Positions 2,863 to 55,292 of a stretch of DNA of 64,000 nt are shown here, piece by piece (position 1 is the stretch's first letter; each line of letters starts with the position of its first letter). This DNA is from Candidatus Omnitrophota bacterium (lineage in GTDB: Bacteria > Omnitrophota > Gorgyraeia > Gygaellales > Profunditerraquicolaceae), in NCBI GenBank assembly GCA_020058085.1, contig JAGVER010000010.1, positions 1,549 to 65,548 of the forward strand, written 5' to 3'. The position numbers and the translations under genes are program-made. The notes beneath the pieces were generated by a model that saw only the letters and a program-made list of their open reading frames with translations, was not told the DNA's origin and searched no databases.

Positions 2863-2972
2863 CTATAAACCTCCTTGCCCATAAGGGCACACCCGCGCAA
2901 TTTTCGCCATAAGGTGAACACTGGCCCAATTCCAATAAAGGCCAGGTGCCTTTAAGCGCGGGGTGTTGCACA
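2863..2972. repeat. Structured intergenic repeat, copy A (SD-abutting hairpin plus three-way-junction module)
   Basis: Fills the gap from the TGA of the upstream gene (2973-2975) to the serA SD. TGCCC-ATAA-GGGCA at 2876-2889. The outer stem CACACCCGCGC / GCGCGGGGTGTTG encloses TTCGCC-ATAA-GGTGAA (2903-2918) and CACTGGCC...GGCCAGGTG (2919-2949). About 95% identical to 26591-26690. Confidence 0.8.
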
Positions 2973-4112
2973 TCAGTTTTTTAAAAATACTTCTTCTGCC
3001 GCTTTAACCCCTGCGCCTAAATTGAATTTGTGCCCCATCTGATACAAAACCTTCTCTAAACAGGAAATTCCCGTTATAATATCGAACTCCTCAATAAAAC
3101 CCATATGGGCAATGCGGATTAATTTGCCTTTCATCTCGTCCTGTCCGCCAGCAATAGTTATACCGTAAGTATCGCGCATAGTCTTAACAAGCTTTTCACC
3201 GTCAATACCCTGAGGAACTTTAGCTGCAGTTACCGCGTCTGACGCGGCGCTAGGAGCAAACAATTCCAAATCAAGCGCCTTTACCGCGGACCTTGTTGCC
3301 TCCGCCATCTTCTTGTGCCGTGCGAAAGTATTCTCTAAACCATCCTGCTTCATCATCTCCAAAGCTTCATTCAAGGCGATAATCAAAGTAATCGCAGGTG
3401 TGAATGGGGTATCAGTTTTATCGAGAGCCTTTTTGGATTTTCTCAAATCAAAATAATAACGCGGCGATTTTGAAGCTTCGATCAACTTAAAGGCCTTTTG
3501 GCTTACGGAAATAAAACCTAATCCCGGAGGCAGCATAAGCCCTTTTTGCGAACCTGAAATAACCATATCGCAGGACCACTCGTCGGTTTTAATCTCAATC
3601 GCGCCCAAACCGCTAATAGCGTCAACTACTAAAACCGCTTCTGTATTTTTAACTACTTCGCCGATCCCCCGAATATCATTAGTAACACCGGTTGATGTCT
3701 CGCACAAAGTGGTAAATACCGCTTTAATCTTGGGATTTGTTTTTAATCTTTTTTCTATTTCTTTAGGATCAACGGCCTTGCCCCATTCAACATCAATAAC
3801 TTCTGCAGCTATGCCGTAAGCCTTACAAAGTTCCGTCCATCTCTCGCCAAATTTTCCGCCTTGGACAACTAATGCCGTATCTCCTGCGGATAATAGATTT
3901 ATTACTGCAGCCTCCATAGCGCCTGTTCCTGACGAAGCCAAGATAAATACGTCGTTTTTAGTCTGAAATATATACTTTAACCCTTCGGTTGCTTTCTTGA
4001 TCTCTCCCTGAAATTGCGGAGTACGATGGTGAATAATCGGCCGGCTCATCGCCTCTAAAACCTGCGGTGGCAACGGTGTCGGCCCGGGTGTCAAAAGATA
4101 GTTTTTCCTCAT
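2973..4112 (-). CDS. Class V PLP aminotransferase (serine-pyruvate / phosphoserine aminotransferase type)
   Basis: 379 aa. [15 protein letters not shown] has the PLP-lysine context of the AGXT/class V family. Adjacent to serA, suggesting a role in serine biosynthesis. 4-nt overlap with clpP. Confidence 0.8.
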
Positions 4113-4717
4113 TTTTTCTTCCCCGGCATAATTACTTCGTCAACTATCCCGTATACTTTAGCCTCGTCGGCAGACATAAAATAATCCCTATCGGTATCCT
4201 TTTGCACTTTCTCTAGCGATTGCCCGGTATGATGCGCGAGTATTTGATTAATCTTATCGCGCATATTCAAAATCTCTTTGGCATGGCGCGAAATATCTTC
4301 AGCCTGCCCCTGAACGCCTCCCCAAGGTTGATGAATCATCACCCTTGAATTGGGCAAAGATTGACGCTTACCTTTTGTGCCGGCGCATAATAAAAGCGCC
4401 CCCATGCTTGAAGCCTGGCCCACGCAATAAGTAGCGATATCGCATTTGACAAATTGCATTGTATCGTATATCGCTAAGCCAGCAGTAACCGAACCTCCGG
4501 GTGAATTAATATAAATATTTATATCCTTGTTAAAATCCTCCATCTGCAAAAATAAGATCTGTGCGATAATAAGATTTGCCACATAATCATCTACTGCAGT
4601 TCCGACAAAAATAATACGGTCTTTAAGGAGCCGGGAGTAGATATCATATGCTCGTTCATAACCGCGTTCGGTCTGCTCTATAACCATAGGAACCAAGGTC
4701 TGATTCTTAACATCCAT
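4109..4717 (-). CDS. clpP: ATP-dependent Clp protease proteolytic subunit
   Basis: 202 aa. Catalytic Ser context [11 protein letters not shown] and His context RVMIHQP; typical [12 protein letters not shown]-terminus. AGGAGG SD lies 5 nt upstream. Confidence 0.95.
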
Positions 4718-4814
4718 ATTTACCTCCTTGCGCAGAAGCGCATACTGGCCCGTCCTTTAGGGCCAGGTATTGCCAAAAGGGCACACCGGCCTATCCTTTA
4801 GGGCCGGGTGATTT
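4718..4814. repeat. Structured intergenic repeat, copy B (four consecutive hairpins from the tig stop to the clpP SD)
   Basis: TGCGC-AGAA-GCGCA 4729-4742 abuts the SD complement CCTCCT 4723-4728. TACTGGCCC...GGGCCAGGTA 4743-4769; TGCC-AAAAG-GGCA 4771-4783; CACCGGCC...GGCCGGGTG 4784-4810, followed by a T-run and the TAA complement at 4815-4817. Confidence 0.8.
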
Positions 4815-5693
4815 TTAAGCCGCTATATTCCAATTCGCCTCTCTAAATAAAAATTCCATTACCCGTCTCGGCATATGCTCATCTTGGGTAATATTCTCTT
4901 TTTTCGCTATTGCCGATAAAACTAAATAAACCTTAACCTGATTTCTGGCTTCGGGCTCCAGTTCCTCGCGCATCTTCTTCTCTTGCTCATCTATCTTCTC
5001 GCGCGGAATACCTTTTAAAGCCAGATCCACCTTAGCCTGCCGCAACATATCTTCTAACTGTCTCCTGACTAAAGACTGGGGTGATTTAAAATCTAATCCT
5101 TTAACCAAATTCTCAATAATCTCACCCTCTACCCTTTGCCTTTCAGCATTTTCTTTCTGTAGGAAGATCTGTTTCTCTAATACTTTCTCTAATTCTGTGA
5201 GAGATGGATAACCCAGAGATTTAGCTAAATTATCATCTACATTTTCTAATTTACGCGATTCTTTCAACGAATCAATACTTCGCTTTACATCATCTGCCGA
5301 AACGCTTACATTTTTATAATTAATCTTTATACCTTTATAATCCTTGATATTAATTTCCGGGCTAATCTCTACTTTGGCCTTAAAGGAGAGGTTATCACGG
5401 TCTAATTTTATTTCAGATATTTCGGGTAATTCAATAACATCAAGCGCCTCTTCATTAATAGCCTGATTATAAATATCCGGAACTAACTCCTTCAAAACCT
5501 GCTCATGGGCCGCAGAGCCATATTGTTTTTCTAAGATATCCCTGGGCGCGTGCCCCGGACGAAACCCCGGAACCTTGGCTTCAGTCGAGATACGTTTAAA
5601 TACATCTTCAAATTTATTCTTAACAACATCTCCGCTTACTTCAACATTTATCTCTCTGATGTTGCTCTCAATCTTCTTTACTTCTGTCTTCAT
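4815..5693 (-). CDS. tig: Trigger factor lacking the central FKBP-type PPIase domain
   Basis: Ribosome-binding signature VPGFRPGHAP in the N-domain, and a C-terminal arm domain. About 292 aa versus ~430 typical. The ATG at 5693 is preferred (AAAGGGA upstream); the ORF-track start at 5708 is a GTG overlapping the lptB stop. Confidence 0.8.
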   Translation of the reverse strand: MKTEVKKIESNIREINVEVSGDVVKNKFEDVFKRISTEAKVPGFRPGHAPRDILEKQYGSAAHEQVLKELVPDIYNQAINEEALDVIELPEISEIKLDRDNLSFKAKVEISPEINIKDYKGIKINYKNVSVSADDVKRSIDSLKESRKLENVDDNLAKSLGYPSLTELEKVLEKQIFLQKENAERQRVEGEIIENLVKGLDFKSPQSLVRRQLEDMLRQAKVDLALKGIPREKIDEQEKKMREELEPEARNQVKVYLVLSAIAKKENITQDEHMPRRVMEFLFREANWNIAA

Positions 5694-5704
5694 TGCTTTC
5701 CCTT

Positions 5705-6427
5705 TCACATTCTAAACTTCTCACCCAGATACACCTGACGTGCCTGGGCACTATTAATAAGTTCGTTAGCCGTTCCAGAAATGAGTATTTTCCCTTCAGC
5801 AATAAGATAAGCGCGGTCAGTTATAGATAAAGTCTCTCTTACATTATGATCAGTAAGCAAAATACCCAACCCCTTTTCCTTTAGTTCTTTAATAATCTCC
5901 TGCGCCTCGTTAACCACAATAGGATCAATACCTGAAAATGGCTCGTCTAAAAGTATAAAAGAAGGGTTAGTAACCAAAGCCCGAGTGATCTCCAGCCTCC
6001 TTCTTTCTCCACCTGATAATGTATAAGACCTATTCTTTCTCAAATGCGCGATATTTAGCTCATCAAGCAGACCATCCAGCCTTCTCTTCCTCTCGGATTT
6101 ACCTATAGGTAACGTCTCTAGAATCGCTAGAATGTTCTCTTCAACAGTCAGCTTTCTGAAAATTGAAGCTTCTTGCGAAAGATAACTTATTCCGAAACGA
6201 CAACGCTCATGAATAGGAAGATTAGTAATATCATAGTTATCAAAAACTATCCTGCCGCGATTAGGAGGAATAACCCCTACGATCATATAGAATGTCGTAG
6301 TCTTACCCGCGCCATTAGGGCCCAATAGCCCGACAATCTCGCCGCGCTTAACTAAGATATCAACACCGCGGACAACCTCTCTGGAATTATACGATTTACT
6401 TAGGTCTTTAATTTCCAAAAGATGCAT
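5705..6427 (-). CDS. lptB: LPS export ABC transporter ATP-binding protein
   Basis: 240 aa. Walker [10 protein letters not shown], signature [11 protein letters not shown], Walker B ILLDEP. Sits next to the OstA-like gene and kds genes. Confidence 0.92.
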
Positions 6428-7304
6428 CTTTGAGCTCTCCTGTGGAATAAAAAACTAATTTGGGACGGCCGCTTAAAATTATTTTTTTATCTAATGCTTT
6501 ATATTCCGCTTCTTGGCTATAAGAGATATTTTCGCCGCGCACAATTTTCACATTACCACTGGCGACTATCCTATCTATACTGCTTGCCATTGACTTATCG
6601 GTTTGATTTGCCGCAGGGCCGGTGCTTCCTCTAACAAAATAAAGATCCATCTTATCGCTATAAATTGTCAAATCCGGCCTTTCCACTTTAACATTATCAT
6701 AAAAAGAAGCAATATTTTTCTCATAGTCCACTATTAGCTCGCCGTCGCAGGTAATGACAACTTTATCCTTAAGTACTGAATCATTACCATTTGCAGTTGC
6801 CGGATTTATATCCACACGCACATCTTTATTTAAGGCAACTTTATTTAAATTCGGTTCGCCATGCGCCCCCATACCCACAATAGTTATGTTATCTTTATTT
6901 ATATTAACCTTGTCGTTGGTAGAAACCAACTGGTTCTTCCTATCCCAATCCATAGAATCAGTGGTGAGTTTAGCCCCTCCTGCTGTCGTAATTACCACAT
7001 CTTCCTCCAGATGCACCTTTCCATCTGACTTATTAAAATCCCCTTTTTTGGCAGTAAGGTTGACATTTTCTTCTTTATCATACAAATTACCATCTACATC
7101 TTTTAATTTAACTACTTCCGTAAAAATATCCGCGGACTTACCGGATATATCCCAGCTTTTTTTACCCTTATCTCCGTAGCCGGATAAAGAGAAATCGCTT
7201 ATCTGCTGATCAGATTCTTGTGGTTCGGGGGCGACAGCTCCAAAAGCGGAATTGAAAGATAACAAAAAAAAGACAAGAATAAAAGAAAAATTTTTAAGAC
7301 TCAT
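6408..7304 (-). CDS. LptC-like / LptA(OstA)-like fusion protein, periplasmic LPS bridge
   Basis: 298 aa with signal/anchor [22 protein letters not shown]. Two successive OstA-type beta-jellyroll-like segments ([15 protein letters not shown]... and [26 protein letters not shown]...[10 protein letters not shown]). Located between kdsC and lptB, where lptC and lptA normally sit. Confidence 0.65.
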
Positions 7305-9620: not shown

Positions 9621-10360
9621 TATATCTTCTCTCTCCCGAGATACTCTTTTACTTTCTCTAAATCTTCCGGGGTATCAACTCCTATAGTATCGAATTTGGT
9701 TTCCACAACCTTAATTCTGAAGCCTTCCTCTAAAACTCTTAATTGCTCCAATTTCTCTGTCATCTCCAGATTAGAGACAGGCAGATTCTTATAAGTAAAA
9801 AGAAAATCCTTGGTATAACCATAAAGGCCGATATGTTTATAGTAGGCTGGATTTTTTACGCTAGAATTATTAGCTAAGTAAGGAATGGCATTACGAGAGA
9901 AATATAACGCGAAGTTATTCTTATCTGTTACTACCTTAACTACATTGGGGTCATTAATCAGGCTTGGGTCTTCTATCTTCTTCATAATAGTAGCCATGGA
10001 GACTACAGGATTATCAAGCAGCGCCCTGGCGACGCTATCAATCATTGTGGGATGAATCAAAGGCTCATCCGCCTGAATATTAACTATAATCTTAACATCT
10101 AAAGGATTAACTACCTCGGCGATTCTGTCTGTACCACAGTCATGGCTCTTAGAAGTCATCACTACTTTAGCGCCAAATCCGCGGGCAGCATCTGCTATCG
10201 CCTCATGGTCACAGGCAATAATTACCTCATCCAATAATCTTACTTGTTTGGCCCTCTCCCATACATGCTGGACCATCGGCTTGCCCATTATATCCGCTAA
10301 GACCTTGCCTTCAAAACGAACAGAAGAATATCTTGCTGGTATTACTCCTATTACATCCAT
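9620..10360 (-). CDS. kdsB: 3-deoxy-manno-octulosonate cytidylyltransferase (CMP-KDO synthetase)
   Basis: 246 aa. IPARYSSVRFEGKVL, NIQADEP, GVDTPEDLEKV. Confidence 0.93.
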   Translation of the reverse strand: MDVIGVIPARYSSVRFEGKVLADIMGKPMVQHVWERAKQVRLLDEVIIACDHEAIADAARGFGAKVVMTSKSHDCGTDRIAEVVNPLDVKIIVNIQADEPLIHPTMIDSVARALLDNPVVSMATIMKKIEDPSLINDPNVVKVVTDKNNFALYFSRNAIPYLANNSSVKNPAYYKHIGLYGYTKDFLFTYKNLPVSNLEMTEKLEQLRVLEEGFRIKVVETKFDTIGVDTPEDLEKVKEYLGREKI

Positions 10361-12117: not shown

Positions 12118-12176
12118 GTTCTAACAAAACTTATTACGCAGCAATAGCTTATCTAGAAACGGTCTGGGGCTTTAAA
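12118..12176. repeat. Direct repeat copy 1 (~59 bp), degenerate GGTTCTA-type palindromic element overlapping the stop of 12149..12610
   Basis: GTTCTAACAAAACTTATTACGCAGCAATAGCTTATCTAGAAACGGTCTGGGGCTTTA matches 14805-14863 with 6 mismatches. The internal arms GTTCTA / TAGAAAC are inverted. Confidence 0.75.
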
Positions 12177-12610
12177 ACATTCTCAACCTCTTGAATATTT
12201 TCAGGACTGGCATCCCAACGCCCAAAAGAGCCTCTATATGTAGTCCGATATTTCATTTGAGAATCTTTGTCGAGAAATAGAATCCACCTTGAACCTTTTT
12301 CAGGCATTAAATCTTCAGTAAATCTCCACCCGGCTTCCGCTATGCATGCGGAACCATCGCTAAAATCATACCGTACATCCAAGACTTCAGGGACATTTGC
12401 ACCTTTTAATAAACGAATTATTTTATACTTCCCAATTGGCCCACTAAAATAATCGACTTTACCCTCCAACTTATACCCCGTATATTCAACAATAGCTATA
12501 AGTGGAGAGTTGAAAGCTTGGTCTTTTGTAGGTTCGAACATAGGTTTGGCAAAAACAGACGAGAAGCTTATAAAACAGAGTAAACTCATAATAACCAGTA
12601 ATTTTTTCAT
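12149..12610 (-). CDS. Secreted hypothetical protein
   Basis: Start moved to MKKLLVIMSLLCFISFSSVFA (GAGAAAGGA SD). Signal peptide present; no recognisable family. Confidence 0.6.
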   Translation of the reverse strand: MKKLLVIMSLLCFISFSSVFAKPMFEPTKDQAFNSPLIAIVEYTGYKLEGKVDYFSGPIGKYKIIRLLKGANVPEVLDVRYDFSDGSACIAEAGWRFTEDLMPEKGSRWILFLDKDSQMKYRTTYRGSFGRWDASPENIQEVENVLKPQTVSR

Positions 12611-12671: not shown

Positions 12672-13339
12672 TACTTATTTGCTTCAAAATCCTTTAGTTC
12701 TAACTTGGCCTTTTCAATAAAATCATCCACTACCAAGCGAAGAGTCTTTTTCCAGTTAGCTTCATTCGCTACCTGACAGAGATTCCGCGATGAAGCAGTT
12801 ATAATTATAGGTTTGTCTCTCTTAGGCACGGTTACAGTGTTTGTAGTAGTTATCTCGCTCTTTAAAGATAAAGTCCAGAATCCTGGCATAAACCAAGCCC
12901 AGAATTTGTCAATGGAGATATCCATTATAATAGCATCGGATTTAGCTTCCTTATCGTTGTTAACCACATCGTAACCAAGAGAGTATAAAGAATTACGCGT
13001 AGCTTCATAAATAACACTTTGTACGCTTTGGCCTTCTTCAAGTATGATATCCCCTAATGCCTTGCCATAGGTATTACGCTTTCTTGCTATAGCCCTACTC
13101 TTCATTTCCGGGGTAATTTTATTTAATTCCCCAAAACCTAATGACGGAATATCAGCGCTTTTAGGCTTTTCTTGAAATATCCGGCTATCTGTAATTGAAC
13201 GAATATACACCTGTTTACCATTAGAATTAGTTAAAATTCCAGCAGGTACTTGTATACCAAGATAACCCCGGTTTGTAGCACAACCAGTTAAATTAATAAT
13301 AACTACGAGCAGAACAAAAAAATTAAGTACCTTCTTCAT
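12671..13339 (-). CDS. Lipoprotein, possibly YajG/LptE-fold-like
   Basis: Start at MKKVLNFFVLLVVIINLTGCATN (AAAGGAG SD). Lipobox LTGC. The alternating helix/strand pattern resembles small YajG-like lipoproteins, but this is a weak call. Confidence 0.6.
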   Translation of the reverse strand: MKKVLNFFVLLVVIINLTGCATNRGYLGIQVPAGILTNSNGKQVYIRSITDSRIFQEKPKSADIPSLGFGELNKITPEMKSRAIARKRNTYGKALGDIILEEGQSVQSVIYEATRNSLYSLGYDVVNNDKEAKSDAIIMDISIDKFWAWFMPGFWTLSLKSEITTTNTVTVPKRDKPIIITASSRNLCQVANEANWKKTLRLVVDDFIEKAKLELKDFEANK

Positions 13340-14804: not shown

Positions 14805-14863
14805 GTTCTAACAAAACTTATTACACATCAATAACTTATCTAGAAACGGCCTGATGCTTTACA
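14805..14863. repeat. Direct repeat copy 2 (~59 bp) with a remnant of a gene 3' end
   Basis: GTTCTAACAAAACTTATTACACATCAATAACTTATCTAGAAACGGCCTGATGCTTTA. The minus strand reads ...VKHQAVSR-stop, versus ...LKPQTVSR-stop in copy 1, but there is no ORF upstream. It is preceded by GGGGGCG, which resembles the GGGGACG arm of the 17242 and 63431 palindromes. Confidence 0.75.
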
Positions 14864-14938
14864 ATATAAGAGATTACAAAAACCACATTCTAATATGTGC
14901 CCAAAAGTGCCTATCCTACAAGAATAATCGAACGTGTT

Positions 14939-16206: not shown

Positions 16207-18252
16207 TTAATCTTTTAAGACCGAGTCGGCGCAAGAGACTACGTCTTCAACGCTAATCGCCTTTAAGCAGGCGAATTGTTTTTTACAATTATGTGCCAAG
16301 CATTCGATGCATTCGATGCATCCGACGTCTTTGTGCAAGACTTTATCTCTTAGGCCTACCGGCCCCCAACGCTTCGGGCTTAAACCTCTCTGTTTCCTGC
16401 CAAATATAGAGATTACAGGCGTACCTACTCCTGAAGCAATATGCACCGGACCAGAATCATTAGAAATAAACAAACTACATCTTTTTAGTAAACTGGCTAA
16501 CTGGGATACGGAAGTTTTTCCTGCTAGAGAGACTACAGAACTGCGCATATTTTTAATTACGTTTTGAGCAATTAATAAGTCTTTTGACCCAGAGACGACT
16601 AAAATTTTAAAGCCGTATTTTTGTGCTAACTCATCCGCCACTTCGGCAAAGCGTTCATGATGCCAAACCTTGGAAGGACAACTTGCTGCGGGATTTATGG
16701 CGAGTAATTTATCCTGCGCCTTTATACCTTCTTGTTTAAATAAATCATCAACCCATTCTTCGGATTCTTTCTTTATGGGCATAAAAAGATTTTTATCTTT
16801 AACATCGATTTTTAAATATCTTAATAAATCCAGATTATATTCCAGCTCATGCTTCTCCCCACGCTCTTTAGTATGGGGAATTCTGTCAGTAAGCAAAAAA
16901 CCTAATTTTCTATCGTAACCAACCCTTTTAGGTATGCCAGCGAGAAAACTTAATAAATGCGCGCGGTTTGTCGGATGTAAAACTATCGCCAGATCAAATC
17001 TTTTTTTCTCTAAATTACGGGCGAACTTTATCGACCGCGGCCAACTCTTATGTTTTCCTTCTTTATCATAAATAATAACTTCATCCAGATAAGGATTCCC
17101 TTCAACTATATCCTTAGCATAAGGAGAGACCACCATAGCAATAAAAGCATGAGGATATTTCTCGCGCACTGCTTTTATCACCGGCGTAGATAGAAGTACA
17201 TCTCCGATCCGATCGGTACGCACGATAAGAATACGTTTAAAAATAATGGGGACGGTTCTATTTTTCTTAAAAATAGAACCGTCCCCATTATTCCCATTAT
17301 TCAGCATCTCTCTTGATTGCCTTAGCACATCCTCTACCTTTATCAATCGCAGACAATCCAGAGTTCCCAGTTTACACTGCGCCTTTTTACATGGCCGACA
17401 ATGAATCTCTTTTTTTACTATGCTACTTTTTTTTGACCAGGGGCCATACTTACTATCATCAGTTATGCCAAATATAGCTACTACCGGTATATCCAGATAA
17501 CTTGCTATATGCATCGTGGCACTGTCATTACTAATTACTAAGGATGCCTTACTTAATAAGCTAGCCAACTCCCTTAGGTTAGTCTTGGCGCCTAGGTCTA
17601 AACAAGAGCCCTTTAAACTTTCATTAATATATTTATTTATCGGCGCATCTTCCTTATCTCCTACTAATACAACCTTAACTCCAAACTCTTCTTGCAATTT
17701 AAAAATCAGCTCGGCAAACTTCTCTTTAGGCCATCTTTTAGTATGACTGCGCGCTCCGGCAGATATGACAATAAAATTATCCTTATTACTGATCCCACCG
17801 TCTTTTAATAAACGCGTTATATACTCTGCGTCATTAGCACCTATATAAAAACTGCTCTTGGGCAAAGGATTATCACTCTTATATCCTGCGAGATAAAGAT
17901 GCCTCGCCTTCATATGTCTTATCTCTTTGGGTATTTTTGTAAGGCAAGGATGTTTGCTGTAGGCCTTAAGGATAAATCCTAAGAATGAATCCTTTAAATC
18001 TACAACCAGATCGAAATTATTCTTTATTAAATCCCTGAACAATTTAAGTTTTTCTTTAAATCCTGTGCGTTTATTATAAATAATAAATTTATCTACAGAA
18101 GGATTATCCGCGAATATATCTTTGGCTCTTTCGCTGGCTAAAACCGTAATATGGCTCTGGGGAAAGTCGGCCTTGAGAGAATCTAGGGCCGGAAGCGTAA
18201 GAATCACATCCCCAATATTGCTTAAAGTAATTAATAAAATCTTTTTTTTCAT
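16207..18252 (-). CDS. Tandem GT9 (heptosyltransferase-like) fusion protein; the two modules are joined by a palindrome-encoded linker
   Basis: 681 aa. The N module starts MKKKILLITLSNIGDVILTLPAL and has SNDSATMHIA. The C module starts KRILIVRTDRIGDVLLSTP and has SNDSGPVHIA. The linker NNGNNGDGSIFKKNRTVPIIF is encoded by 17242-17301. Confidence 0.8.
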   Translation of the reverse strand: MKKKILLITLSNIGDVILTLPALDSLKADFPQSHITVLASERAKDIFADNPSVDKFIIYNKRTGFKEKLKLFRDLIKNNFDLVVDLKDSFLGFILKAYSKHPCLTKIPKEIRHMKARHLYLAGYKSDNPLPKSSFYIGANDAEYITRLLKDGGISNKDNFIVISAGARSHTKRWPKEKFAELIFKLQEEFGVKVVLVGDKEDAPINKYINESLKGSCLDLGAKTNLRELASLLSKASLVISNDSATMHIASYLDIPVVAIFGITDDSKYGPWSKKSSIVKKEIHCRPCKKAQCKLGTLDCLRLIKVEDVLRQSREMLNNGNNGDGSIFKKNRTVPIIFKRILIVRTDRIGDVLLSTPVIKAVREKYPHAFIAMVVSPYAKDIVEGNPYLDEVIIYDKEGKHKSWPRSIKFARNLEKKRFDLAIVLHPTNRAHLLSFLAGIPKRVGYDRKLGFLLTDRIPHTKERGEKHELEYNLDLLRYLKIDVKDKNLFMPIKKESEEWVDDLFKQEGIKAQDKLLAINPAASCPSKVWHHERFAEVADELAQKYGFKILVVSGSKDLLIAQNVIKNMRSSVVSLAGKTSVSQLASLLKRCSLFISNDSGPVHIASGVGTPVISIFGRKQRGLSPKRWGPVGLRDKVLHKDVGCIECIECLAHNCKKQFACLKAISVEDVVSCADSVLKD
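17242..17292. repeat. 51-bp perfect palindrome (GGTTCTA-type element) lying in frame inside the GT9-GT9 gene
   Basis: AATAATGGGGACGGTTCTATTTTT-CTT-AAAAATAGAACCGTCCCCATTATT. The same 18-19 nt arms occur at 63431-63488. The adjacent 9-nt duplication CCCATTATT lies at 17293-17301. Confidence 0.9.
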
Positions 18253-18258
18253 AATATT

Positions 18259-19281
18259 TTATAATTTTATAGCTTGGATAACATCATCGGGCGAGATCGC
18301 CTTCATACAACGATTATCTCTACATTTTAGATCATAACAAGGGATTACGCAGCCAACATTTTTTTGCAGGATTATTGTGTTCTTCAAAGGATAAGGCCCG
18401 GTAATCTCAAGCGAGGTCGGGCCAAAAATAGCAATTATCTTTTTTGCGCCTACGCTATTAGCAATATGCATCGGCCCGGAATCAGCAGTAATAAAGAGGC
18501 TCGCCTCTTTAGCTAAAGCGCCTAGTTGCTTTAGATTAAAAACTCCACAGGCAATTATGGGCTTAAATTTCATTTTTTCTTTGATCTGTACGGCCAGAGA
18601 CTGATCGCTATGCGCGCCGGTAATCACTACCTTGGCCCCAAGGCTCTCGATTAATTTATCCGCTAACTCTGCCCAATATTCTTTTGGCCAACGCTTAGAG
18701 AGCCAGTTGCCTCCGGGATTTATTGCCACTAAAAAATCTTTATTACTAACCGAATTCTTATTCAAGAATTCCTGCGCTAACTTAGTATCCTCATCACTTA
18801 AATAAAATTCCGTATACCTATCCTCAACCTTGAGCCCGGCACGTTCAATAATGTCCAAATAATAATCTATGCGGTGAAGAGAATCTCTCGGCGGAGGCAT
18901 AATCTTTTGCGTAAGAAGAAAACCCCTCTTTTTCGTATAATGGCCTATCCTCTTAGGTATGCCGGCAAGGCGGCAGATAAGCGCGCGGCTAAATGACCGA
19001 TGCAGAAGAAATACAATATCAAAATCTTTTTCCCTTAAACTACGTACAAAATTGAGGCGTTCAAATATACCCTTATGCCGGTCATTCTCATCAAATATGA
19101 TAATTTCATCTAAATTAGGGTTGTCTTTTAATACCGGATAGCAACGGCTAGGTATAATACAGGCAATAAAACTCTCCGGAAAATTACGCCGGATATTCCT
19201 GATTGTAGCCGTAGAAAACAAAACATCACCTAGCCAGTTTACGTTGAAGATTAGGATCTTTTCACCAACCAAACCCCTCAT
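18259..19281 (-). CDS. GT9 family glycosyltransferase (LPS heptosyltransferase-like)
   Basis: 340 aa. ILIFNVNWLGDVLFSTATIRNI and TADSGPMHIANSVG motifs. Confidence 0.85.
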   Translation of the reverse strand: MRGLVGEKILIFNVNWLGDVLFSTATIRNIRRNFPESFIACIIPSRCYPVLKDNPNLDEIIIFDENDRHKGIFERLNFVRSLREKDFDIVFLLHRSFSRALICRLAGIPKRIGHYTKKRGFLLTQKIMPPPRDSLHRIDYYLDIIERAGLKVEDRYTEFYLSDEDTKLAQEFLNKNSVSNKDFLVAINPGGNWLSKRWPKEYWAELADKLIESLGAKVVITGAHSDQSLAVQIKEKMKFKPIIACGVFNLKQLGALAKEASLFITADSGPMHIANSVGAKKIIAIFGPTSLEITGPYPLKNTIILQKNVGCVIPCYDLKCRDNRCMKAISPDDVIQAIKL

Positions 19282-20075: not shown

Positions 20076-21157
20076 TCTTGATATAATTCTTCCGTTTTTA
20101 AAACTATCTTTTCCTCTGAAAATTCTGCCGCAATATACTTGCGGGCATTTGCTCCTAAACTTGAGGCTTTGTTGGAATCGAATAATAAATCGATTATTGC
20201 CTTGGCAATACCGGGAGAATCTTCGGGATTAACCAATAAGCCATTTTCTCCATCTTTAATCAAGGTCTTAATCCCGCCTACAGCTGAACCAATAACCGCA
20301 AGCCCGGAGGACATTGCTTCCATAAGCGCAAGGCCTAAACCTTCTTTTAGTGAAGGCATCACAAATATATCTATCGCCGATAAGATATCTCTTGTATCTA
20401 ATCTTTCGGTTACAAAAAAAACACTCTTGCCAATACTTAGGCTCTCGCTTAATCTTTTTAGCTCTTTTTCCATCTTGCCTTCTCCGGCAATAAGCAACTG
20501 CGCATCCGGAAAATCCACTAAGACTATCTTCATTGCCTCAATCAGATACTTATGCCCTTTAACATCGGAGAGTCGGGCCAAAATACCAATCACCGGGCTG
20601 GATCTTAAACCCAGCCGAGACTTTGCTTCCTGCTTCTGAGATAAAGAAACTGGCTTAAATTTGTCTACTGCGATACCATTATTTATCAAACTTATCCTCT
20701 CTAAGCCTACCTTAAAATCATCCCTGAGATGCTCTTTAACCTGCTCGCTTATGGCAATTATCCTCTCACCCCAACACGGGAAAATCTTACGCGAGAAACG
20801 CCTTTTAAAGAAACCATGGCAAGTAGAGATATGCTTTGCACTGGTAAGCTTATGCAACAAAGACCCTAAGACCTGCGTAGTCCGGCTATGTGAATGCAAT
20901 ATATCAATTTTATTATCTTTAATTACTTTACTTAATTTAAACGCGCTTAATAGTATTTTAAGGCTTAACTCATTTTTAGTCTTGATCGGTATGGAAATAT
21001 AAATTATCCCTAAATCATTAAATTTAGGCAACAATTCTCCGCCGCTGGACGCGATAAAGACGCTATGCCCTTCTTTCTTAAGCCCGGATGCCAGGGTAAA
21101 AATATAGCTAGTTATACCCCCAACGTTAAGATGATTAACCAGAAAAAGTATTTTCAT
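20054..21157 (-). CDS. GT4 family glycosyltransferase
   Basis: 367 aa. NVGGITSY N-terminus; EGLGLALMEAMSSGLAVIGSAVGGIKTLIKDGENGLLV (E-x7-E). Confidence 0.88.
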   Translation of the reverse strand: MKILFLVNHLNVGGITSYIFTLASGLKKEGHSVFIASSGGELLPKFNDLGIIYISIPIKTKNELSLKILLSAFKLSKVIKDNKIDILHSHSRTTQVLGSLLHKLTSAKHISTCHGFFKRRFSRKIFPCWGERIIAISEQVKEHLRDDFKVGLERISLINNGIAVDKFKPVSLSQKQEAKSRLGLRSSPVIGILARLSDVKGHKYLIEAMKIVLVDFPDAQLLIAGEGKMEKELKRLSESLSIGKSVFFVTERLDTRDILSAIDIFVMPSLKEGLGLALMEAMSSGLAVIGSAVGGIKTLIKDGENGLLVNPEDSPGIAKAIIDLLFDSNKASSLGANARKYIAAEFSEEKIVLKTEELYQECLRKKE

Positions 21158-23241
21158 TTTAAAAACTTATCTACCCCTTCAAGCACTTCTTCCGCGGTTA
21201 TCATATTCATACACTTCTTATCTTTACATCTTGCTTTATAGCATGGGCTGCAAGGCAGCTCTTTACGGATGATCAAATAATCTTTTGCCGGAGGCATATG
21301 CCTTAACGGATCAGTCGGCCCGAAAAAAGCAACGATCGGAATCCTCATCGCTACGGCAATATGCAAAGGAGATGAATCAGCGGAAACATAAACAGCGCAA
21401 CGCTTAATCAAACAGGCTAACTGATTAACCGTTGTTTTACCGCAAGCGTTAATTACCTTGACGTTCTTTACCGCATTAACCAGCATATTCGCTTCTGGAA
21501 GATCATCTTCAATGCCTGTGACGACTACACGGATATTCCTTAAACCAAGTTCATCGCAAAACCTGACCATATGCTGCCTGGGCCAACATTTAGTAGCCCA
21601 TCTTTTGCTTGCGCCCATATTTATCCCGACAATCTTTTGGTCATCACTCAACCACTGCGTATTCAATAAATTCTCTATATACTCTTGATCATCTTCAGTA
21701 GGCCATAATTCTAAATGGCTATCTCTTAAATCTATGCCCAGTAACTTTAACATCCTGAATTGATGCTCTACTGGCCCTATCCGAGGCTTATCATCTTTAA
21801 TCCGATAATTAAGTAAAAAACTTAATTTTCTATTATCATACCCATAGCGGTTAAGGCTCAAAGACAAGAATGAAAGCAAGTGGCTTAGGCGATTGTTCTG
21901 AAGATCAATCACTAAATCAAAGTTTTTCTTTCTTAAGATTCGCGCAATGCTTAATAATCCCGCAATACCCTTATCTTTACCTTTAAGGTCAACTACTAAA
22001 AGTTCGTCTATATAGGGGCTCTTAAGCAAGAGATCTTTAGATTCCTCTCCAACCAAGAAACTTATCTTATGATGCACAAACTTTTCTCTTATTGCCCTGA
22101 TCCCGGGTATAGATAAAATAACATCTCCTAAAGAGCTTAACTTAATAATTAATAATCTGGGATTCTCAATAGCATCTAGATAAACCTTAAGTGTATTCTC
22201 TACCATAAGCCCGACATTATACTTCTCTCTCACCTTTAAAATAGCTGCCTCGGCAAGATTAAAAGCTAACTGCGGATCTTTAAATATCTTTATTATTGCC
22301 TCGGCCATACTCGCAGGATCACCGGGAGGGACTAAAAGGCCGTTCTTGTTATTCTCAATAATATCAACAACACCGCCAACTTCTGTGGCCACTACCGGTA
22401 CCCCTGATGCCTGCGCCTCGATAACAACCCTGCCAAAAGCTTCATGAGTAGTAGTTGCAAGCACCAAAAGATCCAAATGCGATAAGATCTCCGGAATATT
22501 CTTTTGTGTTCCTAAGAATTCGGTACAATGGCCAAGCCCCAGTCTTCTGGTTAAAACTTGCACTTGCTCCTTATAGGCCTGATGGGTAGGAGAAGCGTCT
22601 CCGACTACCCAGATTTTTAAAGATGGGACCACCCTGGCAACCTTAGCCATAGCCTTAATAAAATATAAGTGCCCCTTAATAGGCGTAATCCTGCCGATAA
22701 TTGCGATATTAAATTCCTTGCCTCTTTTTTTATTCGGGCTTAAATATTTAAATTTCTCTAAGTCTACGCTCCGAGGTATCAAAGATATTCTGTCATGCGG
22801 CACGGCAAAATCTTCAATCATATGCCGTGCGATAATATTACTTAAAACAATTACCTTCTTTCCCCAGCCCATTACATAACTAAAAGGATGTTTTTTATAA
22901 TAACCGTGACAAGTCGTAATAAAGACGGTTTTAGTCCTACGGCAGGCAAAATAAGCGATCCAAGCTGGCACGCGCGAACGCGCATGTACAATATCTATCT
23001 CCTCTTTTTTTATAATCTCAACTAAAAGAGAAACCATCTTAATCATCGTAAAGAGTGATTTTTTATGAACGGCGAGCTGGTAATGTTTGGCCCCAACCTC
23101 CTCTAAATCTTTAACTAATTTGCCACCGGCAGAGACAACAACTGCCTTATGATTCAAACGCACCAGATACTTGGCTAAATCCAAGGTCCCGGTCTCTACC
23201 CCTCCGACATTTAACTCCGGTAAAATCTGCAGTATGTTCAA
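21154..23241 (-). CDS. GT4 - GT9 two-domain glycosyltransferase fusion
   Basis: The N half has EAFGRVVIEAQASGVPVVATEVGGVVDIIENNKNGLLV. The C half has LLIIKLSSLGDVILSIPGIRAI and SADSSPLHIAVAM. TTG at 23241 with an AAGGAG SD 8 nt upstream is preferred over the ORF-track ATG at 23280, which lies inside a repeat hairpin. Confidence 0.8.
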   Translation of the reverse strand: MNILQILPELNVGGVETGTLDLAKYLVRLNHKAVVVSAGGKLVKDLEEVGAKHYQLAVHKKSLFTMIKMVSLLVEIIKKEEIDIVHARSRVPAWIAYFACRRTKTVFITTCHGYYKKHPFSYVMGWGKKVIVLSNIIARHMIEDFAVPHDRISLIPRSVDLEKFKYLSPNKKRGKEFNIAIIGRITPIKGHLYFIKAMAKVARVVPSLKIWVVGDASPTHQAYKEQVQVLTRRLGLGHCTEFLGTQKNIPEILSHLDLLVLATTTHEAFGRVVIEAQASGVPVVATEVGGVVDIIENNKNGLLVPPGDPASMAEAIIKIFKDPQLAFNLAEAAILKVREKYNVGLMVENTLKVYLDAIENPRLLIIKLSSLGDVILSIPGIRAIREKFVHHKISFLVGEESKDLLLKSPYIDELLVVDLKGKDKGIAGLLSIARILRKKNFDLVIDLQNNRLSHLLSFLSLSLNRYGYDNRKLSFLLNYRIKDDKPRIGPVEHQFRMLKLLGIDLRDSHLELWPTEDDQEYIENLLNTQWLSDDQKIVGINMGASKRWATKCWPRQHMVRFCDELGLRNIRVVVTGIEDDLPEANMLVNAVKNVKVINACGKTTVNQLACLIKRCAVYVSADSSPLHIAVAMRIPIVAFFGPTDPLRHMPPAKDYLIIRKELPCSPCYKARCKDKKCMNMITAEEVLEGVDKFLK

Positions 23242-23315
23242 CTTTATTTCTCCTTGCACAGTAAGTGCATACTGGCCCATCCTTTAAGGCCAGGTATTGC
23301 CCAGTAAGCGCACTT
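23242..23315. repeat. Structured intergenic repeat, copy C (short form)
   Basis: TGCAC-AGTAA-GTGCA 23256-23270 abuts the SD complement. TACTGGCCC...GGCCAGGTA 23271-23298, with the same bulged G as copies A and B. Runs to the stop at 23316-23318. Confidence 0.7.
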
Positions 23316-25301
23316 TTACAATATCTTTTTCAGGGCCTCGCCGACTAAATAACTATCCCTTAGGCAAGGTCTAGCCGGTTTATCGCGCCAAACCGACTTA
23401 ACCGTGTTGCTTAAACCCCCACTTTCAACCAAGTATATATATTTATTCTTAGCAAAATAATTCAGAAGATCTTTATGCTTAAAGCTTAAGGCCGGGGCAT
23501 TAAAGACAAAGACATATTTCTTGCTACTTACCGCTTCAGAGATCATAGATATGCTTTCCGGAGAAGAAATAACAATCTTGCTTAGCCCCAATATACCGCC
23601 TATGGCCTCTGGAATATTCTTTTCATTAGCTACGACCATAAGTTTAATGCGCGGACAATCCTTGAATTCCCTTTTGATGATTTCCTCCACCCCTAAAGAC
23701 GTGCGCCGGGAAGTAGTAACTAAGATTTCAGCGCCTAAGTCCTTAGCTAAAGACTTTACTTCTTTTATCAGATCAGAGATTAATTCACCGGAGAGACGAA
23801 ATCCCTTGCTATCCCCGCCTATCAACAAACCTATGTATAAACTATCTTTATTTAACCCTTGAGATTTAATAAGCCCCACTGATTCTTCTTCTAGGTATTT
23901 ATCATCTATCAGATTAAGCGCGCCTTCAATTGCCTGGATATTCTTTCTTTTTAAAGGACGATCGTGCCGCGGCATAATAACTAAATTAAATTTATCTACC
24001 CCCAATAAAGCCGGACGCAGGATAACGACTGACTTACTTAGATTCTCGCGGGAAAAAATAAAATTTACTCCTGCAATTGAAGAACCCGCCGATATCACTA
24101 TATCCGGCTTAAGCCCTGCCAAGATTCCATAAGTTTTCTCGCTTAAGAATATCTTGAGACACTTAAGGCAACCCTGACAATTGTATCTTCCCGAAAAACA
24201 AACACAGATATTAAATATAAATTTGGCAAATTTATTCTTGAAGTCTATCTCTACTATATTAACCCTGGCCCTGATATTCTTTTCGCTTAACAAATTTTGC
24301 GCTATTTTTGATACTGCCTCTGACTGGCGTAAATGCCCGGTTTTTTTGTCGCTCAAGATAACTATATCTCTCTGGTCAGAATGTTTCCATATCTTATAAG
24401 TCCAAAGATACTCTTTAGGATTCCTACGTATAAAATCTTCAAAAATAGCGACAACCTTCTGGAGATTCTGCTTTATATCCTGATCCTCATCACCGGTCGC
24501 CTCACAAGAGGCGCACTTTGCCTTCCCATAGGCAAAGGTGCCTTTCATTACAATCTCCTTACCCGCCCATACCTTTATCTTCGGCCCGCGGGTACGAACA
24601 AAAAATATCGGAATTAATGCCGAGCCATATTTTAAGGCTAATTTAACCGCTCCTGTAGGCATAGAAGCAGGACGGCCGAAAAAATCAACCAGCGTCCCTG
24701 ACCTACCACCCTGGTCTGCCATCATACCTATAGCCTGATTATTCTTTAAGGCGTTAATTAACCCTCTCAACCCTTGATCACGAGTAATTATCCGGCAATC
24801 TTTATCTTTACGATAATTATTAAGCAAACGGTTTAAACGCGGAAACTTTTGGTCTTTTACAAAGAGAACAAAGGGGAAACCTAAATTCGCAGAGATAACA
24901 TTGGAAAACTCCCAACTTCCGGCATGAACTCCAACCAGGATTGCGCCTTTACCTCTTTTTAAGGCCCCGTTAATATGCTCCACACCTTCAATCTTAATAT
25001 GCTTATCCATATAATTACGATCCACTAATGGAATAAGGAAAACTTCGATAATACTCTGGCCAAATGACTGATAGAATGACCTGGTTAAGCGAGATAATTC
25101 CATGCAGGAAATCCCAGGGCCCAGCGCGAACTTAATATTGGCATAAGCCCTGGCTTTATGTTTAAGGTCAAGATAATAAAAACAATCGCCTAAGCGCCGG
25201 CCTAAGAATAGGCTGGACTCTATGGGTAAAACCCTTAAAATCGGGCCTAAGGTCTTAAAAAGAATACAACCTAAATAATCTGCCAAAAAAAAGTTCTTCA
25301 T
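23316..25301 (-). CDS. Lipid A late acyltransferase (LpxL/HtrB family) fused to an ELM1/DUF1022-like domain
   Basis: 661 aa. The N half has the acyltransferase HAGSWE (HX4E) motif and the MADQGGR region. The C half (LLIGGDSKGFRLS...VTTSRRT) resembles ELM1-family putative glycosyltransferases. Confidence 0.7.
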   Translation of the reverse strand: MKNFFLADYLGCILFKTLGPILRVLPIESSLFLGRRLGDCFYYLDLKHKARAYANIKFALGPGISCMELSRLTRSFYQSFGQSIIEVFLIPLVDRNYMDKHIKIEGVEHINGALKRGKGAILVGVHAGSWEFSNVISANLGFPFVLFVKDQKFPRLNRLLNNYRKDKDCRIITRDQGLRGLINALKNNQAIGMMADQGGRSGTLVDFFGRPASMPTGAVKLALKYGSALIPIFFVRTRGPKIKVWAGKEIVMKGTFAYGKAKCASCEATGDEDQDIKQNLQKVVAIFEDFIRRNPKEYLWTYKIWKHSDQRDIVILSDKKTGHLRQSEAVSKIAQNLLSEKNIRARVNIVEIDFKNKFAKFIFNICVCFSGRYNCQGCLKCLKIFLSEKTYGILAGLKPDIVISAGSSIAGVNFIFSRENLSKSVVILRPALLGVDKFNLVIMPRHDRPLKRKNIQAIEGALNLIDDKYLEEESVGLIKSQGLNKDSLYIGLLIGGDSKGFRLSGELISDLIKEVKSLAKDLGAEILVTTSRRTSLGVEEIIKREFKDCPRIKLMVVANEKNIPEAIGGILGLSKIVISSPESISMISEAVSSKKYVFVFNAPALSFKHKDLLNYFAKNKYIYLVESGGLSNTVKSVWRDKPARPCLRDSYLVGEALKKIL

Positions 25302-26310: not shown

Positions 26311-26583
26311 TTAGAAAACTTTACATAACATAAGTATGCCTATAAGAATAAATGAAGACGCACCGACGTAACGTATTATCTCCGGTTTGATAAATTTCGC
26401 CATAACCGCACCGATGATAACCGAAATAATCGTAACGATGACATAGGCTGAAACCGAGCCTAACCATACTGAAATCGGCTTCCCTGTCTTAGCTGCCATG
26501 CCAATACCGACTAATTGCGTCTTATCCGCTAATTCCGCAAAGAATACCGCTGTAAAAGTAGCTAAAAAGACTCTCCAATCCAT
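26311..26583 (-). CDS. UPF0016 / GDT1-family single-domain membrane protein (putative Mn2+/Ca2+ transporter subunit)
   Basis: Start moved to MDWRVFLATFTAVFFAELADKTQLV (E-x-x-D-K-T signature), with GGAGGAG SD. The first 40 codons of ORF 26311..26703 read through the repeat element and are discounted. Confidence 0.75.
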   Translation of the reverse strand: MDWRVFLATFTAVFFAELADKTQLVGIGMAAKTGKPISVWLGSVSAYVIVTIISVIIGAVMAKFIKPEIIRYVGASSFILIGILMLCKVF

Positions 26584-26735
26584 GATTCTCCTCCTTGCCC
26601 ATAAGGGCACACCCGCGCAATTTTCGCCATAAGGCGAACACTGGCCCAATCCCAATAAGGGCCAGGTGCCTATAAGCGTGGGGTGTTGCGCAGAAGCGCA
26701 CACCGGCCTCTCCTCTTAGGCCGGGTGACATTTTT
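26584..26735. repeat. Structured intergenic repeat, copy A' (three-way junction plus two extra hairpins)
   Basis: 26591-26690 is ~95% identical to 2871-2970. It is extended by TGCGC-AGAA-GCGCA 26687-26700, CACCGGCC...GGCCGGGTG 26701-26727, and T6 at 26731-26736. Confidence 0.85.
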
Positions 26736-36808: not shown

Positions 36809-37849
36809 CTAACTAATTCTTTTTATGTAGCTTTTATAATTAGCTTTGATCTCTCTCAAGGAATCCGAGCCGAATTTCTCTAAGATCGCGTCCGCCAAAA
36901 CAAAAGCGCAAGCAGATTCAGCCACAACTCCGGCAGCTTCAACTACACAGGTATCTGATCGTTCTACAGCCGCTTTAGAAGACTTATTAGTTTTAATATT
37001 AACTGAATCCAATGGCTTCATTAAAGTGCTTATAGGTTTCATACACGCGCGCAGAACTAATTCCTCACCATTGCTAATGCCACCCTCAATCCCTCCGGCA
37101 TTATTAGTCTTACGTAAATAACCTTTACCCTTAGCATGATAAATTTCATCGTGGACCTCGGAACCAAAACTTATAGCATAACCAGATCCCAAACCAACTT
37201 CAAATGACTTTATCCCCGGTATAGAGATGATCGCTTGAGCAAGACGGCCATCTAATCTTTTATCCGCTTGGACATAACTACCCAAACCAACGGGAAGGCC
37301 CTTGGCTCTAACTTCAAATATCCCTCCGACTGTATCCTTAAGCCTGATAGCCTCACTAATTTTATCTCTCATAGAACCGGGAGTATTTTCTCCGCCAACA
37401 GACAAAATTCTGCTAGATATACGCACATTAAATTCATTTAAGAAAATTTTACATAACGCACCTATGCCTACGCTAGCAACAGTACTGCGCGCAGAAGCAC
37501 GCTCTAGGACTTCCCTTATATCCGTAAAACCGTATTTTAGTAACCCCGCTAAGTCCGCATGTCCGGGACGAGGAGAGAATACCTTATACAGCTTCTCAAT
37601 ACTAAAATCATTATTCTTAATCAAGAGAGTAAGCGGACTCCCTAAGGTTAAATTATTTTTCAACCCGGAGAATATTTCGGCACGGTCATTCTCAAGCTGC
37701 ATCCGCTTCCCACGGCCAAAACCCGCCTGCCTGCGCTTTAATTCCTGATTGACTTTAAGTAAATCTATTTTCAAACCTGCCGGCATACCTTCTAATATTG
37801 CTACAATCGCCCTGCCGTGCGATTCACCCGCTGTTAGACATCTTAACAT
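36809..37849 (-). CDS. aroC: Chorismate synthase
   Basis: Start at MLRCLTAGESHG (AAGGAGG SD). GRGKRM and RSDTCVVEAAGVV motifs. The first 9 codons of the ORF track lie in the repeat. Confidence 0.93.
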   Translation of the reverse strand: MLRCLTAGESHGRAIVAILEGMPAGLKIDLLKVNQELKRRQAGFGRGKRMQLENDRAEIFSGLKNNLTLGSPLTLLIKNNDFSIEKLYKVFSPRPGHADLAGLLKYGFTDIREVLERASARSTVASVGIGALCKIFLNEFNVRISSRILSVGGENTPGSMRDKISEAIRLKDTVGGIFEVRAKGLPVGLGSYVQADKRLDGRLAQAIISIPGIKSFEVGLGSGYAISFGSEVHDEIYHAKGKGYLRKTNNAGGIEGGISNGEELVLRACMKPISTLMKPLDSVNIKTNKSSKAAVERSDTCVVEAAGVVAESACAFVLADAILEKFGSDSLREIKANYKSYIKRIS

Positions 37850-38098
37850 ATTAAACCTCCTTGCGCAGTAGCGCACATCCCGCAGAAAACGGGATACTCG
37901 ACATTCGCCTCAGATGAGGCGCACTTTGCCTCGATTGGCAAAGGTGCATTTATGTCGAGGTACCGGCCTCTCGCCCAGAATGGGCCGCCCCCTGAAGGGA
38001 ACGCTTGGCAATCGCTTCAGAAGAAGCGTACTTTGCTTTCAAATAGGCAAAGGTACATTTATGCCAAGGTGCAAATAAGGCCGGGTGCTAACACTTTC
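37850..38098. repeat. Structured intergenic repeat, copy D (249 nt; two tandem three-way-junction modules plus flanking hairpins)
   Basis: TGCGC-AGTA-GCGCA 37862-37875; ATCCCG..CGGGAT 37877-37895. Module M1 37897-37959 and module M2 38004-38068. Outer stem GTACCGGCC 37960-37968 / GGCCGGGTGC 38079-38088. Spans the SNase stop to the aroC SD. Confidence 0.85.
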
Positions 38099-42132: not shown

Positions 42133-42174
42133 TATTTAATCCCTCCCCCCCTATCCGCTAATTAAAATATATTA

Positions 42175-55140: not shown

Positions 55141-55292
55141 ACCCCACCTCCTGTAAGTGCACATCCCGCAGAAAGCGGGATACTCGACATTCATTTATGT
55201 CGATGTACCGGCCTCTTAGATATTGAGCACCTTATGCTTTAATCTAGCGAAATCCTTGATCGAACACAAGTGAGATCAAGGAAGGCCGGGTG
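55141..55292. repeat. Structured intergenic repeat, copy E
   Basis: ATCCCGC..GCGGGAT 55163-55181. CTCGACAT-TC-ATTTATGTCGA 55183-55203 is the M1 outer stem with the two inner hairpins absent. Outer GTACCGGCC 55205-55213 / GGCCGGGTGT 55284-55293 encloses TCCTTGATC...GATCAAGGA. Runs from the purM TAA to the SD. Confidence 0.8.

Follow-up and report, generated by a model that had tools for sequence, protein, structure and literature searches.

A 42-base two-hairpin DNA repeat fills the short spacers before Shine-Dalgarno sequences in Omnitrophota bacteria

Palindrome loops are hot spots for insertion, as illustrated by IS1397, which enters the loops of REP sequences, and the PATEs derived from IS200/IS605 have single-strand hairpins with an extrahelical base as their recognition element. 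Hairpin features of the kind represented by a conserved foot, bulge and loop are read by both IS608 TnpA and RAYT. The cyanobacterial SDRs of Elhai et al. (2008) are reportedly very small hairpin repeats that nest in one another and lack a transposase of their own. The Omnitrophota, ultra-small bacteria that have yet to be cultured, possess compact genomes, and we know of no report on their repeat content. One end of a REP sequence is marked by an unpaired tag, GTAG or CGTC (PMC3733652), and the replicative unit of a REPIN is an inverted REP doublet (PMC3116915). Rickettsia palindromic elements (RPEs) can enter the reading frames of protein-coding genes without disrupting them, while the Correia/NEMIS and ERIC MITEs are intergenic, co-transcribed, often located just upstream of genes and associated with altered mRNA processing or expression (PMC10969869).

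The DNA analysed here is a stretch of 64,000 nucleotides from a Candidatus Omnitrophota bacterium (hereafter the window). It has ~40% G+C; the GC skew of its + strand is strongly negative, and the minus strand carries nearly all of its genes. Pfam matches identified phosphoglycerate dehydrogenase (1276-2862), a class-V aminotransferase, ClpP (4109-4717), a short trigger factor (4815-5708), a GT4/GT9 glycosyltransferase (21154-23241), a lipid A acyltransferase/ELM1 fusion (23316-25301) and, among the other flanking genes, LpxK, GDT1, a HAD hydrolase, chorismate synthase, SNase, an SPFH protein and PurM; given this gene set, the organism is a diderm. The original prediction held that a hairpin family fills six regions from stop to start (2863-2972, 4718-4814, 23242-23315, 26584-26735, 37850-38098 and 55141-55292), and sequence inspection, a covariance model (R1) and shuffles all bore this out. 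Each of the six extends exactly from the stop of one gene to the start of the next and has 45-56% G+C versus ~40% overall, whereas a looser relative proposed at 1160-1275 is not a member (R1 E 0.36). These GC-rich inter-gene "leaders" are copies of a 42-base DNA repeat composed of two hairpins, A and B (Table 1).

Table 1. Repeat units and arrays in the window (SD, Shine-Dalgarno sequence; ^, point at which a nested unit interrupts a loop)
Feature	Positions	Strand	Parts and adjoining signals	Evidence
tig/clpP unit 1	4771..4810	-	A 4784-4810, CACCCGGCC-CTAAAGGATA-GGCCGGTG; B 4771-4783, TGCC-CTTTT-GGCA; begins 4 nt past tig stop (4815-4817)	R1 4770-4810, E 7.5e-12; sequence, fold
tig/clpP unit 2	4729..4769	-	A 4743-4769, TACCTGGCCC-TAAAGGAC-GGGCCAGTA; B 4729-4742, TGCGC-TTCT-GCGCA; abuts SD AGGAGG at 4723-4728; clpP ATG at 4717	R1 4728-4769, E 9.4e-13
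serA outer unit	2876..2965	-	CACCCCGCGC..GCGCGGGTG plus TGCCC-TTAT-GGGCA; A loop TTAAAGG^AATT contains inner unit 2903-2948; B abuts serA SD at 2870-2875	R1, fold, sequence
Acyltransferase/glycosyltransferase single unit	23255..23296	-	Abuts SD AGGAG at 23250-23254; preceded by orphan B-like hairpin 23297-23312	R1 E 1.2e-12; sequence
Intragenic unit, lipid A acyltransferase/ELM1 gene (23316-25301)	24498..24540	-		R1 E 3.2e-09
GDT1 5'-region array	26596..26727	-	Unit 26687-26727, linker A, outer unit 26596-26685 with nested unit 26622-26668; SD at 26590-26595	Sequence, R1
SNase/aroC three-level nested composite	37862..38087	-	Holds units 38013-38055 and 37906-37946, TACCTCGACAT..ATGTCGAGTA plus TCCCG..CGGGA; terminal B 37862-37875; SD 37856-37861	Sequence, R1; RNA fold -112 kcal/mol, z -6.8, reproducing the nested architecture
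purM/SPFH outer A and unit	55164..55292	-	Outer A starts at 55292, 3' arm 55206-55213, loop filled with other hairpins; then unit 55164-55207, then ancestral GTGCACTTAC, then SD 55145-55152	Sequence, R1; fold z -5.3

Read on the gene strand, the unit measures 41-46 nt and typically ~42 nt. Hairpin A, 27-30 nt in total, consists of YAC, a bulged base that is nearly always C but rarely A or T, a variable stem of 5-7 bp, a loop, the complementary arm and GTR. The loop is 6-12 nt long with the consensus YTAWAGGAW (also given as UAAAGGAU) and carries GGA in 97 of the 114 units collected from all loci, the variants without it being TTATTTGAATT, AATCGA and ATAAATGAT. Hairpin B follows directly 3' with zero spacer and has a stem of 4-7 bp, mostly T-A closed, and a TTNT-type loop (TTCT, TTTCT, TTGT or TTAT). 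The four interchangeable modules of the earlier view reduce to these two: A covers CACCGGCC..GGCCGGGTG and TACTGGCCC..GGGCCAGGTA, and also TACCTCGACAT..ATGTCGAGTA, whereas B covers both TGCRC..GYGCA and ATCCCG..CGGGAT. A and B always occur together as one unit, and units are either tandem, spaced by a single A, or nested inside A loops, the nesting reaching three levels at 37862-38087. The serA region shares 103 nt at 94% identity with 26590-26692, and an empty-loop form of the serA-type unit is present at another locus (L006; L numbers denote loci sampled outside the window). A further candidate, GTGCACTTAC before the SD at 55154-55163, was rejected as a B hairpin because it is ancestral sequence.

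The repeat far exceeded what shuffled sequence produces. A strict structural scan of 400 kb, which allows for the bulged C of hairpin A, counted 95 A hairpins, where block shuffles gave 0-3, and 74 A+B units, where they gave 0-1, and a 25-nt core had four matches in the window versus 0.00 expected (100 shuffles). In the window, R1 detected 10 units with E-values between 9e-13 and 1e-5; every one is on the minus strand, and the + strand gave no significant match. Nine of the 10 lie in the ~7% of the DNA that is non-coding (non-ORF) and the tenth lies inside a gene. Over the window and further loci, E-values reached 1e-13 to 1e-15. That the structures are terminators, arise from assembly errors or are GC-rich hairpins formed by chance has a negligible probability: their GC richness and one A hairpin that resembles a terminator, on the antisense strand only, are all that speaks for it, while the sense strand of the units has no T runs, the shuffles and E-values argue against chance, and the units recur in 36 independent MAGs.

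To determine how widely the repeat is distributed, the exact core pattern ACCYGGCCNTAAAGGANNGGCCRGT was searched in 185,579 species genomes, and 52 stretches were found in 36 MAGs, with a chance expectation of ~0.3 by our own arithmetic; there were no matches in viral contigs. The records with the core are mostly labelled Omnitrophota or Omnitrophica and the rest 'uncultured Planctomycetales' or just 'bacterium', one of the latter group having flanks near-identical to those of an Omnitrophota MAG. The repeat thus appears so far only in Omnitrophota bacteria, and in certain lineages of them. Applied to the window and the core-matching loci, R1 yielded 114 units in 74 arrays. Density was very uneven: the 64 kb window held 10 hits, and 291 kb of DNA around clpP in relatives held 6. 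B hairpins were more alike within a genome than between genomes (similarity 0.50 versus 0.41, reached by 0 of 500 permutations), and some A+B combinations, TTTGCC with CGCCTC and CCAGC with CGTCCT, recurred across species; both observations fit subfamilies of a replicating element.

As had been foreseen, the sequence corresponds to no described family, there being no match in Rfam or in the searched literature. Rfam gave no hit on the window at the gathering score and only spurious ones (E > 0.6) in the focal regions, and searches on Omnitrophota hairpins, repeats, transposases, CsrA and the core sequence brought up nothing relevant in the literature searched. Among ten loci submitted to Rfam, the only match was a c-di-GMP-I riboswitch in L020 (7190-7318, minus strand; 38.1 bits, gathering 35) with a terminator; three antisense hairpin units stand after this riboswitch and terminator and before the SD of the regulated gene. 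In four MAGs, a motif, AGAGACCAGCTTTACCCCGGTATTA, lies immediately 5' of unit arrays (L002, L023, L037 at ~6775-6800 and L048 at ~2547-2572); it has no Rfam match and could be another repeat or an unannotated RNA.

The stems were strongly constrained. On the model-fitted alignment, 96% of the helix A cells were paired and both sides changed in 8/9 pairs, giving a covariation score of 0.47 versus 0.16 in shuffles and 0.06-0.21 with slid partners. Pair counts were 852 WC, 6 GT and 9 AC for helix A and 538, 4 and 7 for helix B; neither stem had an excess of wobble pairs, G-T being no commoner than A-C, so the wobble signature that would mark RNA is missing. The stems seem to be bound to strict complementarity, which fits a hairpin in DNA or single-stranded DNA or young copies of master elements. 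The base at -1 of the unit was a purine in 105/114, in an otherwise variable left flank, and covaried with the base that directly follows GTR (Fisher p 1e-4), which could reflect an extra base pair or a 1-nt duplication.

Comparison between species, from which gains and losses were deduced, showed that junctions filled in one genome are empty in others. Three scan loci (L020, L021 and L027) are syntenic with the window at ~70% protein identity. At SNase/aroC, L020 is empty (TAA|AGGAGGATTTATG), L021 has one nested unit and the window has a composite of 226 nt; at purM/SPFH, L027 is empty and the window has 129 nt inserted right after the stop. Conversely, the overlapping genes at 52003-52010 have no spacer in the window and are separated in L027 by a 41-nt unit directly 5' of AGGAGG, and those at 40622-40635, likewise without spacer in the window, correspond to a site with three units in L020. 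The latter overlap (14 nt) is that between a Ski2/Mtr4-like RNA helicase gene (DEAD + DSHCT; 38692-40635, + strand), which adjoins the SNase gene, and the Macro-NUDIX fusion gene on which it converges (40622-41566, minus strand). Two contigs with close homologues of the window acyltransferase, L053 and L055, document stepwise states of the GDT1 5' region: L055 has one unit, L053 has two in tandem, the second with an empty loop (TTATAAGGAATT), and the window has L053's two units plus a third complete unit in that loop (TTATAGG[unit]AATT).

At the tig/clpP junction, 38 metagenome ClpP loci (~71-93% identity) were compared. The spacer is 2-28 nt long with only an SD in 26 of the 38 relatives, including one at 93% ClpP identity (L058), and it is filled by the repeat only in the window, L059 and L088, in a different arrangement each time. 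Unrelated inserts were observed at this junction in L074, L082, L090 and L070, namely gggacaccct/agggtgtccc palindromes and aaactc/tttagg-type tandem repeats; small repeats in general seem to land here. Within coding sequence, the unit at 24498-24540 is a 42-nt in-frame insertion encoding 14 residues, KGTFAYGKAKCASC, which are absent in 14/14 aligned homologues (57-86% identity); it lies in a variable stretch of the acyltransferase, whose DNA was aligned with L053, L054 and L055. Taken together, the sequence comparisons show that whole units are gained, and possibly lost, at the DNA level. Neither a target-site duplication beyond a possible 1 nt nor terminal inverted repeats other than the hairpin stems were found in the filled/empty comparisons. 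A fixed insertion target was considered and rejected, the flanks being different (TAA^AGGAGG, TAA^GTGCAC, AGG^AATT and AAAGG^GACC).

Other small elements were noted in the same DNA. L053 carries a second, unrelated miniature element at 10189-10264 and 13164-13246 (empty sites in the window at 21154-21157 and 18252-18259), with terminal inverted repeats ACCCCGCAYCTTCT...AGAAGGTGCGGGGT; its insertion point is precisely the ATGA overlap of a stop and a start codon, the TGA becomes duplicated, and the downstream gene acquires a new SD (AAGGAGAAGG) together with a GTG start. A different long GC-rich palindrome, TTAGCGGGT...ACCCGCTAA, fills the UPF0047/FMN-reductase spacer of the window (42133-42245, minus strand), and a similar sequence, 'tttagcgggtggcg', adjoins a unit in L040. 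A 63-nt direct repeat (12118-12180 and 14805-14867, 87% identical) surrounds a low-GC (0.35-0.36) block of genes with no Pfam match or only TPR or DUF4410, an ORF6N gene and a DUF5677 gene lying just outside the repeats; the arrangement could be an island, or else a regulatory region that has been duplicated.

With regard to position, the copies were proposed to span exactly from stop to SD. This is accurate for the 3' side, where B abuts AGGAGG, but not for the 5' side, which begins anywhere from 0 to 21 nt from the stop. Some 37 of the 114 units end at an AGGAGG-type SD with a 0-nt gap, the start codon following 9-14 nt further on. The proposed constant module order and sense orientation was upheld, the order being A, B, SD: 94/114 units (82%) are sense with the dominant coding strand, as are 59 arrays versus 9 that are antisense. 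Copies are neither equally frequent inside genes nor randomly oriented, 9/10 window copies being non-coding and 94/114 units sense. In nearly all loci the GC skew follows the coding strand, so that orientation to transcription and orientation to replication are inseparable there; the only informative locus is L034, in which a unit follows a minority-strand gene. The gene flanked by units in L047 reads as a cold-shock gene in the ORF listing, and inspection of such listings identified no transposase among the unit-flanked genes of L031, L034 and L047.

These regularities would be expected if a conserved cis-acting RNA leader had evolved at the junctions themselves, with B clamping or insulating the SD and A providing an SD-like AAGGA standby site or a mark for RNase processing or 5' stabilisation. 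The ~37 abutting units, the 59 sense arrays, the GGA loop in 97/114 units and an SD that is unpaired in the predicted folds of most window regions folded all favour such a leader, and the 82% sense bias together with a core conserved across many species would also fit a functional RNA motif. Yet the orthologous junctions are empty in most relatives, a state that makes a conserved processing, stability or insulator leader, among the roles first put forward, unlikely as the primary explanation, and the genes served are unrelated: clpP, serA, aroC, SPFH, GDT1 and a glycosyltransferase in the window and csp, rpsC, purE, parA and ribH, as read from their N-termini, in other loci. Copies also occur between convergent genes or antisense in 5' regions (L014, L020, L025 and L047) and in coding sequence; five arrays are antisense beside a gene start, and further arrays sit past terminators. 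With no Rfam match and no wobble-pair excess or wobble-tolerant covariation of the kind associated with structured cis-regulatory RNA, we consider a leader that evolved in place unlikely.

A more specific version would have the units serve as dispersed docking sites for a global CsrA/RsmA-type RNA-binding protein, the loop GGA ~30 nt upstream of the SD GGA allowing bridging repression and the arrays acting as sponges. GGA is indeed common to the loop consensus and the SD AGGAGG, and the geometry of a loop GGA with an SD GGA agrees with known CsrA targets. However, some loops lack GGA, coding and antisense copies exist, and tblastn found no CsrA homologue in the 727 kb of Omnitrophota DNA sampled, a sample too small to decide the matter; the CsrA-type reading is very improbable.

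The alternative of a REP-like repeat system, also named in the original prediction, agreed better with the gain and loss between close relatives, the nesting, the one intragenic copy and the restriction to certain lineages. Like REP, BIME and REPIN sequences, the A hairpin is a bulged imperfect palindrome (27-30 nt with a bulged C), high-copy, extragenic (9/10 window copies non-coding) and located between co-directional genes, and it shares with them clusters that arise by insertion into or beside copies, rare intragenic copies and compensatory stem variation. Membership in the strict sense does not follow, as the behaviour is REP-like while the tag and the doublet organisation are missing. 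The Omnitrophota ends are a paired YAC...GTR with no unpaired GTAG or CGTC tag, CGTC appearing only within one B stem subtype; the units are head to tail or nested instead of inverted doublets, with mixed orientation in 6/27 multi-unit arrays; an obligatory second small hairpin is present; the unit stands against the downstream SD and not after the upstream gene; and units regularly nest in the apical loop. A tblastn search with E. coli RayT gave no match at E < 1 in 727 kb from ~100 loci, all of them from partial genomes. A true REP/REPIN family whose RAYT lies outside the sampled DNA is supported by the short, bulged, imperfect, extragenic, clustered and sometimes intragenic palindrome (PMC3733652, PMC3116915), but given the paired ends, the head-to-tail units, their position upstream of the next SD and the lack of a RayT-like ORF in those 727 kb, we regard it as quite improbable.

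Other families share single traits with the unit. RPEs are also palindromic repeats with in-frame coding insertions, but they are ~100-150 bp long and very often intragenic, whereas the unit is 42 nt long and 1/10 of the window copies is coding. The Correia and ERIC elements have a similar upstream-of-gene, co-transcribed position; Correia/NEMIS and ERIC differ, however, in being 100-200 bp long with terminal inverted repeats, target duplications, promoters or IHF sites, none of which was present here, there being no inverted repeats beyond the stems and no duplication larger than a possible 1 nt. Bulged hairpins and loop-directed insertion recall the IS200/IS605 PATEs, and two hairpins are present, but there is no conserved 5' target tetra- or pentanucleotide, only the -1 purine (105/114), and no tnpA was found. 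Cyanobacterial SDRs resemble the unit, by description only, in size class and nesting, and differ in sequence, phylum and size, no tie of SDRs to the SD having been reported. The family is apparently an undescribed relative of REP/MITE-type repeats and probably not a conserved regulatory leader.

The explanation that we favour, at a probability of roughly 0.7, is that a non-autonomous miniature insertion element, ~42 nt long (A + B), has given rise to these copies by multiplying at the DNA level in certain Omnitrophota lineages. Its landing sites are the apical loops of existing A hairpins, positions beside existing units, positions directly 5' of AGGAGG and, once, a position 3' of AAAGG in a gene. 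Copies would survive only where nothing breaks, which in compact genomes means the few bases between a stop and the next Shine-Dalgarno sequence, and would therefore seem to 'span exactly' that interval; because empty spacers are only 2-28 nt long, nearly all of a filled spacer is repeat. The YAC/GTR foot, the bulged C, the conserved loop and the Watson-Crick stems suggest a trans-acting enzyme that reads a folded single strand, in a manner that would resemble HUH/Y1 transposases acting on REP and IS200/IS605 ends. Inserted units would be co-transcribed, placing stable hairpins before an SD that is predicted to remain free. The sense bias might be explained most simply by selection, since the antisense loop UCCUUUA could pair with the SD, or alternatively by strand-specific insertion.

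The zero-nt abutment of B and AGGAGG is sharper than lack of space predicts, because empty spacers have 4-10 nt before the SD, and targeting of AGG-type motifs or selection/function must be added to the explanation; B's terminal A(A) could, for instance, extend the SD to AAGGAGG. It is conceivable, though in our view a long shot, that Omnitrophota-specific, non-RAYT machinery copies the cassette specifically to sites adjoining SD-like AGG motifs, on the 5' side of AGGAGG or, in hairpin loops and in a gene, on the 3' side of AAGG, and that the cassette has been co-opted as a portable translation leader with the GGA loop as a standby or protein site and B as an SD clamp. If true, a mobile element would be rewiring post-transcriptional control across a candidate phylum.

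Whatever its origin, the repeat affects annotation. The mechanically called ORFs 26311-26703, 36809-37876 and 54265-55194 run into repeats from spurious GTG/ATG starts, the SD-supported starts being 26583, 37849 and 55140, so automated annotation will over-extend N-termini. The repeat probably also breaks assemblies, as suggested by L013, with its runs of N, and L038. It inflates and restructures 5' leaders, up to a predicted fold of -112 kcal/mol before aroC, and can add peptide segments to enzymes. An element multiplying at the DNA level would give the Omnitrophota a REP-like system with three unusual traits, namely hairpins that always come as a pair, units nested recursively in the element's own loop and an exact junction with the ribosome-binding site, and would provide a natural test bed for the movement of miniature palindromes without a nearby transposase and for whether such sequences stay neutral or are exapted for translation control.
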